DNA of 64,000 bases from Eledone cirrhosa (lineage: Eukaryota). The notes under the pieces are model-generated. The model was not told where the DNA came from. It saw only the letters and a list, made by a program, of their open reading frames with translations, and did not search any database. The translations under genes were made by a program, and so were the position numbers. Below are positions 17,218-55,602 of the stretch, in pieces. The stretch lies in assembly GCA_964016885.1 (NCBI GenBank), contig OZ024745.1, positions 118,668,001-118,732,000 of the forward strand, read 5' to 3'. Within the stretch, counting starts at the first letter, position 1; each line of letters opens with the position of its first letter.

Positions 17218-17632
17218 AGTAGATAAATCTACCAAAATATACGGTAGTGTCCAATCCGTATGAAGAACTCAATGTAATCCAAATATCATGAAAAGAGAAG
17301 AATTTTTTCGATGAAAATCACAGGAAAACAGAGTCAAGATAAATTAATAAAAACAAAGAAACCGTTCCTTATATTAAAAAATTCATCATTTTACGATCGT
17401 TTCTAGGATATATATGTGTGTGTTGGTATGTATATCATATAGATCTATGTAAAAATTTTACAAACTTGTAGGTATGTATATTCCCTCTGATAGTTTGTAA
17501 AATTTTTACATAGATCTATATGATATACATACCAACACACACATATATATCCTAGAAACGATCGTAAAATGATGAATTTTTTAATATAAGGAACTGTTTC
17601 TTTGTTTTTATTCATTGTTTTTATTAATTTAT
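17218..17632. mobile_element. (TA)n-flanked foldback element with hammerhead 3' halves
   Basis: Inverted arms at 17341-17466 and 17492-17632 with a 25-nt spacer. Each arm carries GAAAC-GAUC-GUA. Confidence 0.65.
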
Positions 17633-26835: not shown

Positions 26836-32987
<6,152 letters not shown>

Positions 32988-33062
32988 GTATGTGGTTGTT
33001 GAGAGGAAAGAGTACTCAATACCAAAGTAGATTTTTAAGATTCAATTTATTAAGGCTAAACA

Positions 33063-33820
<758 letters not shown>

Positions 33821-43791: not shown

Positions 43792-44694
43792 ATATATATA
43801 TAAGTGTAAGTTACATATAGCCCAGCTGCCACATCAACTCACTCAATGAATTTAGAGCGATCACATGTTGTAAATACGAATCTGTAAGTCAGGGTGGACA
43901 CTATACGTTAAACAGTGGATAAACGACAGTGTAGGAACATACACATATGCATGTATATGCCATGTGTATTGCAGCTTTTAGAATAGGAACACCATATCCC
44001 TGCATGTCATAAGAAGCTACCAAAAAGGTTGGTGTCAGGAAGGGTACTCAACTGTAAAATAGTGCCTCAAAAACATCCTCTACAACCTATGCCAGTATGG
44101 AAAAGTCGACATAAAAACGATGAAAATGATATATATTTATGTCCACTGTAAAGTGGTCGTGTAGGCGTCACAACAAAAAGTACCACGTACTGTAAATGAG
44201 GTTGATCTTAAGAAGGGCAGCCAGCAGTAGAAATCAAGCCAAAATCAGTTCTGTATAAGCAAGACATACACATACCTGTATACCTACAGACATACATACA
44301 TATACATACATACACATCACACACATATGTATACACATCTAGTCAAGTATTTAAGTTTACATATACATTTGTAGTTTATGTACACAAACTATCATGTAGA
44401 CCGGTTCCTGTTTCACCAATGTAGTATTCTTTACATTGTGGACAGGTTGCACAGTAAATTAAGTTTTTTGTTTTGCAATTCATGTTTGCATTAACTTTGA
44501 AAATCTGATTGTTTTTAAAGGAAATATATATAGGGGGATGGACATTTGTAAGAGCAACATCAAATACAAGTCTGTCCTCTTATCAATACCCTGATTGCCT
44601 TAGAAATATATTACGTAATAAATGTATTGCATACAATGCTGTTTGGGGAGGTAATGGTAGTGATTGTGTGATGAAAGTATTAAGTAATTAATAA

Positions 44695-44876
44695 CTGTTT
44701 CTACTTTAGGCACAAGGCCAGCAATTACCCAGTGCATTACTGGTACTTTATTTTATCGACCCCGTAAGGATGAAAGGCAAAGTCAACCTCGGCGGGATTT
44801 GAACTCAGATCGTAAAGGGACGTAACTATGCTGGAAAGCATGGCGTCCGACCCTCTACCGATACTGCCAATCCACC
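44695..44876 (-). mobile_element. Meta-like tRNA SINE, young full-length copy
   Basis: Intact box A and box B; almost identical to 55420-55602 and 1668-1840. Confidence 0.88.
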
Positions 44877-45003
44877 AGAAATATGTATTACAGGCGATTT
44901 ATATAATAAAATGAGTTATGAATATCTAGCCTTCATATTTTTATGTGCCTGTATATATATGTGTATATATGTATATATATATATATGTGTGTGTGTGTAC
45001 ACA

Positions 45004-49545: not shown

Positions 49546-50280
49546 TAATTTTTTTTTTTTTTTTGTGGAGCAAGAAACTCCTAGTCTTCATTAAGACATC
49601 TTTCTAGAAGAAGGTTATTCTGATATAAAACCTGCGACATCGTTTGCATCTAATGATGTAGGCCAGTTCTTCTTTTGGGGTAAATGCATTCAAGGTTCAG
49701 AGTGGGATTGGCCCCATACCAAAACCTTTCCTCACTTAAAAAAGCTTTAGGCACAGGCATTGCTTGATGTGTAACATTTTTTGTGATGCATGGTATTGCT
49801 AGCCATAGGCAAGTCCCTAGCAGGACTAAAAAGCCATGTCTGTGATGCTCATGGTTAAATATCAAGTGGTGGCATTACTCTAAAACAAGTTGCAGTCATC
49901 ATATGTAAACATATGTATATGTATGTATGTGTATGTGTATATATATATATGTGTATGTGTATGTGTGTGTGTATATATATATAAGCCAAATGCTACCATT
50001 CCATTATACAGTGATTGGAAACTGATTTTCTCTAATAACCGATTTTTCACTCACTTGTTAATTTGAGTTTGAGATACGTTGGCTGAGGGCATATGGCAGG
50101 AACAGAACTATTTGAATTTGGTCTCCTACCATCTCGTAAATTTCTGAATCAATAGCCAATCGGTTGACATCATTGTGATGACACATAGCGATTTCAGTTA
50201 CTGATGTTTTACTGTGTTGTTAATCAGTCATAGCCGACACGGACTGAAATCGAATTCTGTTGATCGATTGGTTATTGATT

Positions 50281-50370
50281 AGTCTAAACTTGCTGATGAA
50301 GCCACATGCCCCAATTGTGCATTCTATTGCTCCATTAAGTGTGGCCGAAACTCGAGTACAGGTATAGATT
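50281..50370 (+). ncRNA. Type I hammerhead ribozyme motif (intact core), best example in the window
   Basis: Stem I agtctaaacttg/caggtatagatt (11/12); ctgatga at 50293-50299; stem II gccaca/tgtggc; gaaa at 50347-50350; palindromic actcgagt; GUA cut after 50358. Confidence 0.9.
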
Positions 50371-50695
50371 GAAGGTACCCATTTATGTGTGTTGTATTGA
50401 AGGCAATAACTATGTGTCTATTCTGGAATAGAGTACGCTGAGATGCAACTGGAACTAATTATCCCGTGCGAGGGAGACATGGTCTCCCGACCATTCCCGC
50501 ATCGATTGAAACAAAACCGTCTAACCCATGCTAACATGGAAGATGGATGTTAAACGATGATGATGATATATATATATATATTTATATATATGTCAGGTCA
50601 CTCTATCACTACTGGTAACATGTAACCCAGTACAACCTGCCACGTGGCTCGGTCCGCAGCAACTAAACTAGAAATCCCACCAAGCTTTGGGTTGA

Positions 50696-50882
50696 GGCGG
50701 TGGATTGGCAATATCGGTAGAGGGTCGGATGCCATGCTTTGCAGCAGAGAGTTACCTCCCTTTATGATTTGAGTTCAAATCCCGCCGAGGTTAACTTTGC
50801 CTTTCATCCTTACGGGGTCGATAAAATAAAGTACCAGTAATACACTGGGTATTTGCTGGCGTTGTGCCAAAAGTAGAAACAA
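50696..50882 (+). mobile_element. Meta-like tRNA SINE
   Basis: ggattggcaatatcggtagag ... gagttcaaatcccgccgagg ... gcctttcatccttacggggtcgataaaataaagtaccag. Confidence 0.87.
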
Positions 50883-51362
50883 TTATTATCATTAGTTCGT
50901 TATCTTATATAACTGTCAAAGCTCTTTCATCACACATTCTGTGACCTCATCAATGACTATTTGTGTTCCTCTGTGGCTCTTCTTCATTCTGGTCTTATTT
51001 TGTCTACTCCATCTCGTCTTTCTGTGGTACGTTTATCTGTCTGTGTTGTGTATCTTTGTGTGGGTGTATGTCTTGTGGGAACAGGGGAGGGGTGGTGGTA
51101 AACACTGGGTTTGTATCTATTTCTCTGTGCTCCACCCATGGACTTTTCTTCCTTATGTGTCCTATGTCATTAAGTTGTGGAGTGGGGGTTATTGCTGTTA
51201 GAAGCTGTGGGTGGATGTATATACATATGATGTATTGTGTGTATGTGTGTGTGCGTGTGTGTACACATATAACTTAGTAGTTCGACAAAATGAAAAATGC
51301 ATAACGGGTTCGATAAGATCGACTAAATCAAGCATGGTCGCAGTCTAATGAGTAGAACAATA

Positions 51363-54030: not shown

Positions 54031-54460
54031 ATTAACTGTTTCTACTTTAGGCACAAGGCCAGCAAATACCCAGTGCATTACTGGTACTTTATTTTATCGA
54101 CCCCGTAAGGATGAAAGGCAAAGTCAACCTCGGCGGGATTTTAACTCAGATCGTAAAGGGACGTAACTATGCTGGAAAGCATGGCGTCCAAACTTAATAA
54201 TGGTTTCTGATTTAGGCACAAGGCCAACAATTTTGGGAGAGGGGAAAGTCTCCCAAAATTGTTGGCCTTGTGCCTAAATCAGAAACCATTATTAAGTTTG
54301 GACGCCATGCTTTCCAGCATAGTTACGTCCCTTTACGATCTGAGTTCAAATCCCGCCGAGGTTGACTTTGCCTTTCATCCTTACGGGGTCGATAAAATAA
54401 AGTACCAGTAATGCACTGGGTAATTGCTGGTCTTGTGCCTAAAAGTAGAAACAATTATTA
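54031..54460. repeat. Near-perfect foldback made of Meta-like SINE sequence
   Basis: Arms at 54031-54240 and 54249-54460, with an 8-nt spacer ggggaaag. Confidence 0.92.
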
Positions 54461-54868: not shown

Positions 54869-55228
54869 ATAAAACAAGGATATTCAAGACGAGTTTACAG
54901 CAGAAGTATGTAATGTAGAAATATATCTGAGTAAAACATGAAATTGATTCATACCTTAAGTTCACACGGCATGTCGATTTTCACACAAAATTGCAAAATT
55001 CCTATTCTATTTGATTCACACATGAATCAAGTACAATAGGAATATTGCAATTTTGCTTTCAAAAGTTCACTTCCACTCTTAACACTCTCATTCTTTTTTT
55101 TTTAATTCGACTGAATTAATGTCACATGATTGAGATTACCTCAGTCAATTATTTCCAACATACGACACTGGTTATATCAACTCTTTTAGAGGCAGTGATT
55201 GTCATTGAAAAATTAATGATCTTAAATA

Positions 55229-55602
55229 TTTGGCATAAGGCCAGCAATTACCCTAGTGCATTATTGGTGCTTTATTTTATCGCCCCCGTAAGAATGAAAA
55301 GCAAAGTTAACCTCGGAGGGATTTGAACTCAGACCATAATGGGCCATAACTATGCTACAAAGCATGGTGTCTGACGCTCTACCGATACTGCCAATCCACT
55401 GCCTTAGATCCAAAATTAATTGTTTCTACTTTAGGCACAAGGCCAGCAACTACCCAGTGCCTCACTGGTACTTTATTTTATCGACCCCGTAAGGATGAAA
55501 GGCAAAGTCAACCTCGGCGGGATTTGAACTCAGATCGTAAAGGGACGTAACTATGCTAGAAAGCATGGCGTCCGACCCTCTACCGATACTGCCAATCCAC
55601 CA
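55229..55602 (-). mobile_element. Two tandem Meta-like SINEs
   Basis: 55229-55405 and 55420-55602. Confidence 0.85.

Follow-up and report, generated by a model that had tools for sequence, protein, structure and literature searches.

The window, i.e. the whole stretch of 64,000 nucleotides of Eledone cirrhosa DNA that was analysed, contains one copy of a non-coding repeat family that bears a hammerhead ribozyme motif. Its features are listed in Table 1. Similarity to the family begins at position 49984, directly after a TA/TG microsatellite (49901–49983) that is likely the insertion target or an expansion of it, and stops at 50457. The copy corresponds to columns 328–861 of the 920 reference columns; it lacks the first third of the unit (about 320 nt) and stops about 35 nt short of the family's fixed 3′ end, and there are three deletions of about 8, 37 and 18 nt. 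Its divergence from the column majority is 10.6%, and that of 48 other copies is 9.1 ± 2.5%. With a single ribozyme and no 5′ third, the window copy would thus not yield a unit circle. No host gene was found in the window, i.e. none of 100 frames scanned (165 passed the filter) matches Pfam. Contigs from three runs of one sample contain paralogs and a single 116-nt stretch identical to part of the rod; they carry no independent allele or expression information.

Table 1. Features of the repeat copy and its 5′ flank (window positions)
Feature	Position	Strand	Remark
TA/TG microsatellite adjoining the 5′ truncation	49901–49983		
Truncated copy of the ~870-nt non-coding hammerhead-bearing repeat family	49984–50457	+	Family similarity limits
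Branched rod: 23-pair outer stem, 10-pair inner stem, side hairpins	50147–50280	+	Inherited from the family
Type I hammerhead; stem III palindromic and loop-less	50281–50370	+	Core letters intact
Stem I, 5′ strand (partner 50359–50370)	50281–50292	+	11/12 pairs
CUGAUGA core, then family-wide extra or mismatched A50300	50293–50300	+	
Stem II, 7 pairs; a 37-nt deletion between direct repeats of GTGCA has shortened its loop	50301–50346	+	
GAAA (from 50347), palindrome ACUCGAGU (50350–50357), GUA; predicted cut after 50358	50347–50358	+	
Stem I, 3′ strand, followed by the segment toward the family 3′ end; 18-nt deletion near 50430	50359–50457	+	

The genome (3.0 Gb) is rich in AT microsatellites, and the window itself includes a 6.9-kb AT-type tract (26837–33749), tandem arrays of 27, 84, 43 and 69–99 nt elsewhere, and a near-perfect 103-pair palindrome at 17364–17594. 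SINE-like repeat copies are present at 44692–44877, 50750–50888, 54033–54443 and 55216–55602; two SINE-like copies form a 195-nt inverted repeat of 98% identity with an 8-nt spacer. A second hammerhead-like family (CTGATGAA...GAAATATGTATA), with an AT-rich stem I, is found at 2229 (+), 2076 (−) and 57042 (+). The first two are an inverted pair, and the third is without the G of GAAA. Similar copies also occur in loci L106 and L137.

The first-pass annotation had placed a “textbook minimal” hammerhead at 50281–50370, with CUGAUGA, GAAA, a GUA site, a palindromic stem III and a stem I of 11 out of 12 pairs, and all of these were found there. There are no substitutions in the CUGANGA/GAAA/UH core, and no other complete CUGANGA...CGAAA...UH motif occurs in the window. 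The palindrome ACUCGAGU has a self-duplex energy of −10.7 kcal/mol, while folding prediction gives an intramolecular stem III a probability of 0.0; stem III is therefore predicted to form between two RNA copies rather than within one. The term “textbook minimal” fits stem III but not stem II, whose loop is 31 nt long as compared with about 68 nt in intact family copies, and a search of Rfam gives no hammerhead at the gathering score, nor at E-values up to 10. The long stem II loop and the missing stem III probably account for the Rfam result.

The A-C pair that had been noted at the close of stem II is present, but can also be read in another register, with an extra A after A9, a G50301–C50346 pair (G10.1–C11.1) and a bulged C50345. 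This register costs 2.2 kcal/mol more and has a probability of 0.017. At the A50300 junction pair, the 48 other copies display A-C (32), A-A (8), A-U (6) and G-C (1), with one gapped; position 50346 is an A in 8 of the 48. The core is kept in 23 of 49 aligned copies, a sample biased toward intact copies, and the ACUCGAGU octamer in 30 of the 49. A subfamily (L010, L015, L041, L043, L055) has an A in place of the C before GAAA, linked with a GUU cleavage triplet.

Formation of stem I by the family majority as a monomer is not predicted. The window copy is one of three out of 64 copies in which stems I and II are predicted to form together. It had been proposed as the best candidate for an active ribozyme in the window; as the sole complete motif there and one of the three best predicted folders it keeps that place, but it is solitary and truncated.

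The rod upstream of the hammerhead was recounted as originally described. Its outer stem (50147–50169/50258–50280) has 23 contiguous pairs, of which 19 are Watson-Crick and all four others are G-U (50155/50272, 50163/50264, 50165/50262 and 50166/50261). The enclosed inner stem (50189–50198/50243–50252) has 10 of 10 pairs. The folding energy of the + strand is −52.6 kcal/mol (z = −7.35, none of 200 shuffles being as good) and that of the reverse complement is −35.4 kcal/mol (z = −3.94); these z values are inflated, as the stretch was trimmed to the ends of the rod. The wider span 50140–50400 gives z = −3.73 on the + strand and −1.65 on the − strand. The + strand of the window has four complex stems of at least 20 pairs, among which the rod alone lacks a − strand counterpart. 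Structure does favour the strand of the ribozyme, as had been claimed.

The further claim, that strand-specific wobbles show selection at the window locus, did not survive comparison with the family. Three of the four G-U pairs are in the family majority state, and the remaining one (50166/50261) arose by CpG decay of a family G-C pair. That all four transitions are on one side is weak evidence by itself (1 in 16 by chance). The family majority forms 22 of the 23 outer-stem pairs (five G-U, one C.A) and 9 of the 10 inner-stem pairs, and the outer stem is predicted with a probability >0.5 in 53 of 64 copies. Both the rod and its bias toward one strand thus come from the family, and it is plausible that the selection behind them acted on source RNAs and not on the window locus. 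RNAalifold, applied to the family copies, did not recover the rod. It suggested that the rod could be a switch hiding a strand that invades stem II. This was rejected: the alternative helix exceeds a probability of 0.5 in none of the 64 copies when the rod arm is present and in 2 of 64 when it is absent.

At one column of the rod, 50154, which has a UAG context, 16 of 73 copies show A>G (12 parsimony steps); judged from this recurrence, the column is a possible RNA-editing site. Raw counts on the ribozyme strand are 536 out of 16063 for A>G and 468 out of 20355 for T>C, a strong excess of A>G before filtering. With possible decayed CpGs and subfamily columns set aside, the A>G excess has p = 0.54 in the arms and p = 0.052 elsewhere. 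Compared per copy, A>G and T>C stand at 58 and 36 of 101, with p = 0.019; for the control, G>A against C>T, p = 0.39. These substitution counts hint weakly at ADAR scars as a source of the wobbles.

A similarity search for the window copy yielded 1770 first-look candidates, of which 40 were scored, giving 41 matches; the best other copies among those scored have 73%–85% identity over most of the query. The number of hammerhead-bearing copies in the genome is roughly estimated at about 660–805, based on the share of unbiased copies that keep the exact motifs (3 of 30 and 6 of 30), and on 66 and 168 exact matches genome-wide. Units are found in partial head-to-tail tandems with one type I hammerhead per unit; in the copies examined, the ribozyme is confined to a single strand. 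Six of the eight two-ribozyme loci tested gave cut-to-cut units of 859, 886, 884, 869, 871 and 850 nt. Such loci carry two motifs without amounting to two complete units, and at most ~1.5 units per insertion were seen. Folded as a circle, the whole unit is predicted to be 60%–64% paired (z = −1.3 to −3.5, with 8 shuffles each). The likeness to retrozymes drawn in the first-pass annotation is retained, as to the retrozyme/Penelope kind, but that to viroid-like rods does not hold for the unit as a whole.

Of 100 ribozyme-spanning segments, 89 reach a common 3′ end ~150 nt past the cut site. Beyond this end are TA/TTA repeats (55), the start of a next unit (7) or other sequence (5); 22 were not classed. 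The 5′ starts are scattered across the whole unit, and inverted 5′ pieces are found at L047, L055, L034 and L027. Every insertion examined reads through the cut site. In a tree of 73 copies, terminal branches sum to 5.90 and internal branches to 0.51, with a few subfamilies; this star-like form suggests an old burst of the family. Rare variants are shared at 0.0149 per site in 13 same-locus pairs and at 0.0053 between loci, as expected if both pieces of a locus come from one template. L047 and L048 (G000:C1, 352.58 and 352.61 Mb) are near-identical insertions with shared flanks, in opposite orientation and 27 kb apart; this pair is a segmental inverted duplication or an assembly duplicate.

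No intact open reading frame common to the family copies was seen. Similar short frames recur, and none of four frames matches Pfam at the cut-off. An intron-like segment is found after the 3′ junction at columns 48–149 (e.g. L097:818–919), with ATGAGA|GTAAGT, a pyrimidine-rich stretch and AG. The GTAAGT donor is kept in 26 of 37 copies, with the candidate AG 102 nt on. No spliced copies were seen among 25 fetched of 38 pattern matches, 23 of them being unrelated. A short hydrophobic frame of ~39 aa follows the intron-like segment in several copies. Exact family patterns gave 0 matches in metagenome and viral contigs. No description of the family was found in searches of the literature on Penelope and octopus hammerheads and on cephalopod retrozymes, although supplements or repeat databases may hold it. 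The kind of element, as portrayed in the available text of three accounts (PMC4209133; PMC7229834; 10.64898/2026.07.22.740005), is already known, and the family is a new member.

Taken together, the locus is probably a decayed, truncated copy of an old non-coding family that likely spread as a passenger of Penelope-like elements (PLEs), i.e. a large animal retrozyme. The family displays the properties of a non-autonomous PLE: its 3′ end is fixed, copies are truncated at the 5′ end, tandems are partial, some 5′ pieces are inverted and the targets are microsatellites. In the proposed mechanism, a source locus with two hammerheads would be transcribed on the ribozyme strand. The two motifs would pair via the palindromic ACUCGAGU to form stem III, with low-rate cleavage after GUA. 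A Penelope-type RT-endonuclease may then prime at a nick in a TA repeat on the UUAUUA end region of the RNA, and reverse transcription would run through the cut site. Copying through the cut site implies that the template is an uncut multimer or a re-ligated circle. For RNA of the window copy, weak cutting is conceivable only if it were read through and paired with RNA of another copy.

No autonomous partner sharing sequence with the family was found among the loci covered. All 30 loci fetched of 168 motif matches belong to the non-coding family. Comparison of the unit with PLE loci gave, among the matches listed, only family copies that had been fetched along with them. No terminal sequence in common with an autonomous RT/GIY-YIG element was found in the two PLE families sampled. 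A GIY-YIG open reading frame beside L058 proved to be an independent Neptune-like insertion.

The genome has two abundant autonomous PLE families. One (L127–L140, ~2500–2650 in gene orientation) has 47,195 candidates; its 3′ UTR bears a minimal hammerhead of a build similar to that in the window, but with a different palindrome (ACAATTGT) and U.U as the basal pair of stem II. This PLE family has two alternative 3′ ends before TA repeats. The other (L122–L125) is a young Neptune-like family, in which a 409-aa ORF1 overlaps a 775-aa RT/GIY-YIG frame in another reading frame. Its copies have 97%–98% protein identity and include tandem copies. A canonical hammerhead between the open reading frames was not seen in L122–L125.

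The good pairing of the window copy is an oddity. An alternative, of the same origin, is that the window copy has been under selection at the RNA level since insertion, as a host cis-acting or trans-pairing ribozyme or structured RNA; this is considered improbable. Of 53 helix positions, 10 differ from the majority in the window copy, yet no pairs are broken and four mismatches have become pairs. It keeps 51 of the 53 pairs, as compared with 47 in the majority and at most 48 in the 63 others. Absence of breaks is seen in 2 of 43 gap-free copies, and the four repaired mismatches in the window copy alone. A neutral simulation puts this retention at 1e-5 (200,000 simulations), but the helix set was derived from the window copy itself, and the figure is post hoc and overstated. 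One C-G to U-A double change, together with the joint prediction of stems I and II, also speaks for selection; the double change, however, consists of two CpG deaminations. By energy the window copy ranks only 14th (rod) and 7th (stem I) of 64, its overall divergence is not reduced, and it has three deletions.

Stem I is where the window copy stands out. It has 11 of 12 pairs and others have at most 10; the family majority has five contiguous pairs and an irregular purine-rich part. The window variant of stem I has one exact match genome-wide and a family variant 66. A subfamily carrying the window stem I was considered and rejected, given the single exact match and six one-mismatch matches, each with one of the two changes. 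Also against selection on the window copy, one change, G50283T, recurs in 5 of 73 copies, and hundreds of copies were available from which to pick.

Covariation among homologs, whose absence had been named in the first-pass annotation as one half of what would refute its claim, is at the level of shuffles in 49 aligned paralogs (of 64): 11 double-change pairs versus 9.8 in shuffles, and a score of 0.111 versus 0.113, in a test of low power owing to the star-like, decayed family. Compensatory changes number 9 as against 11.1 expected (kept fraction 0.42 versus 0.37). Pair-breaking changes number 236 versus 289.5 expected. This deficit argues against perfectly neutral decay, but part of it may come from the majority-defined pairs and from sampling, 30 loci having been picked for likeness to the window and many others for intact motifs. 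In 19 copies found with an upstream query from which the ribozyme was excluded, non-CpG changes are 16/190 in the core, 106/1362 in paired positions, 2/76 in stem III and 332/3300 in the rest. The core rate set beside the rest fits the decay reading; the rates for paired positions and stem III again argue against perfect neutrality, subject to the same caveats.

The tidy pairing of the window copy is most likely due to chance and to the reader's choice of the best-looking copy. That a dead retrozyme fragment was re-perfected by selection after insertion, a deletion and point changes having made a well-folded hammerhead of a poorly folding one, is used by the host and would be cut in trans through palindrome pairing with family RNAs is likewise given little credence. 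If it is true that the pair-preserving changes were selected, this would be a rare domestication of a transposon hammerhead.

A further alternative, with about as slight a chance, is that the 870-nt unit is a terminal repeat or internal-deletion product of an unseen autonomous PLE, with the rod a promoter or UTR structure and no circular RNA stage. The intron-like segment after the 3′ junction resembles that in Penelope pLTRs, as they are outlined in the available text of PMC8557442, and read-through of the cut site is explained equally by uncut RNA or a circle. Against it, units past the 3′ end enter the start of the next unit (the seven cases above), no examined copy continues into an open reading frame, and spliced copies are absent from the 25 fetched.

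In quasi-palindrome correction, template switching occurs between the arms of imperfect inverted repeats. The least probable explanation, if by little, is that the extra pairing arose by such switching at the DNA level without RNA function: 8 of 10 changed pairs end as Watson-Crick (three via G-U to A-U), two G-to-T changes within 3 nt both match the opposite arm, and the microhomology deletion shows slippage at the locus, but the neighbouring A50287.A50364 mismatch and G-U pairs are left uncorrected, two changes create new G-U pairs, and changes in three separate helices would need several events.

The reading preferred here, a decayed PLE passenger, makes this most likely one more Penelope-associated hammerhead repeat family in a genome that holds many, and of little significance. 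Its modest value is in the length, unusual for an animal retrozyme, in the large branched stem II and in the intron-like segment. The read-through of the cut site in all insertions is a hint on the question of circles versus uncut templates. The copy also illustrates that G-U pairs confined to one strand of a repeat may be a legacy of its family or a product of CpG decay.

Viroids and plant LTR retrozymes have type III hammerheads, an LTR layout in the case of the plant retrozymes, and a highly self-paired circle. The family resembles them in the long, G-U-containing hairpin that adjoins the hammerhead. It differs in its type I motif, in having no LTR layout, in a circular unit that is predicted to be just 60%–64% paired, and in a ribozyme restricted to a single strand among the copies examined.

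The family is also like the minimal and short-palindromic-helix-III type I hammerheads of metazoan PLEs (Cervera and De la Pena 2014, PMC4209133). As far as the available text of that paper describes them, these have a helix II of 7–8 pairs, a helix I of 4–5, an extra base after A9 and a palindromic 15.2–16.2; a published minimal hammerhead (Schistosoma motif) shows no cleavage as a monomer and low cleavage as a dimer. The family shares the intact core, the palindromic 15.2–16.2, a helix II of 7 pairs, a family helix I of ~5 pairs whose loop 1 is ill-defined, the extra (or mismatched) nucleotide after A9, and the many dispersed, single, decayed motifs. In comparison with the same description, the family stem II is capped by a branched insert of ~68 nt (31 nt in the window copy), G10.1–C11.1 needs a bulged C (one subfamily has an A there), no linked RT-endonuclease open reading frame was found, and stem I of the window copy is extended.

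EN+ PLE insertions, in the available text of Craig et al. (2021, PMC8557442), include partial tandems, inverted 5′-truncated pieces and TA-microsatellite targets. The family is like these, and like non-autonomous PLE derivatives such as MRC1, in its partial tandems, inverted 5′ pieces and TA targets, and like EN+ PLEs in the intron-like segment beside the repeat junction. Unlike the MRC1-type derivatives as presented there, similarity of its 3′ end to an autonomous family was not found, and a 30–40-bp tail is not separately delimited.

Animal non-LTR retrozymes, as characterized in the available text of two accounts (PMC7229834; Li et al. 10.64898/2026.07.22.740005), share with the family a non-coding unit with one type I hammerhead in head-to-tail repeats, a GC content of ~40%, a predicted structured RNA and many monomer derivatives. 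The axolotl retrozyme motif HHR_Amex2, with U.U at the base of helix II and 22% monomer cleavage (PMC7229834), likewise has a non-standard pair at that place. The family differs in having at most ~1.5 units per insertion and a loop-less stem III; animal retrozymes are characterized by expressed linear and circular RNAs. In the same available text, animal retrozyme units are 170–400 nt (PMC7229834) and repeats 150–450 bp. Family units, at 850–886 nt, exceed the described units two- to fivefold; this size range of the retrozymes is typical and not strict, and the family is filed as a retrozyme-like, non-autonomous PLE passenger.
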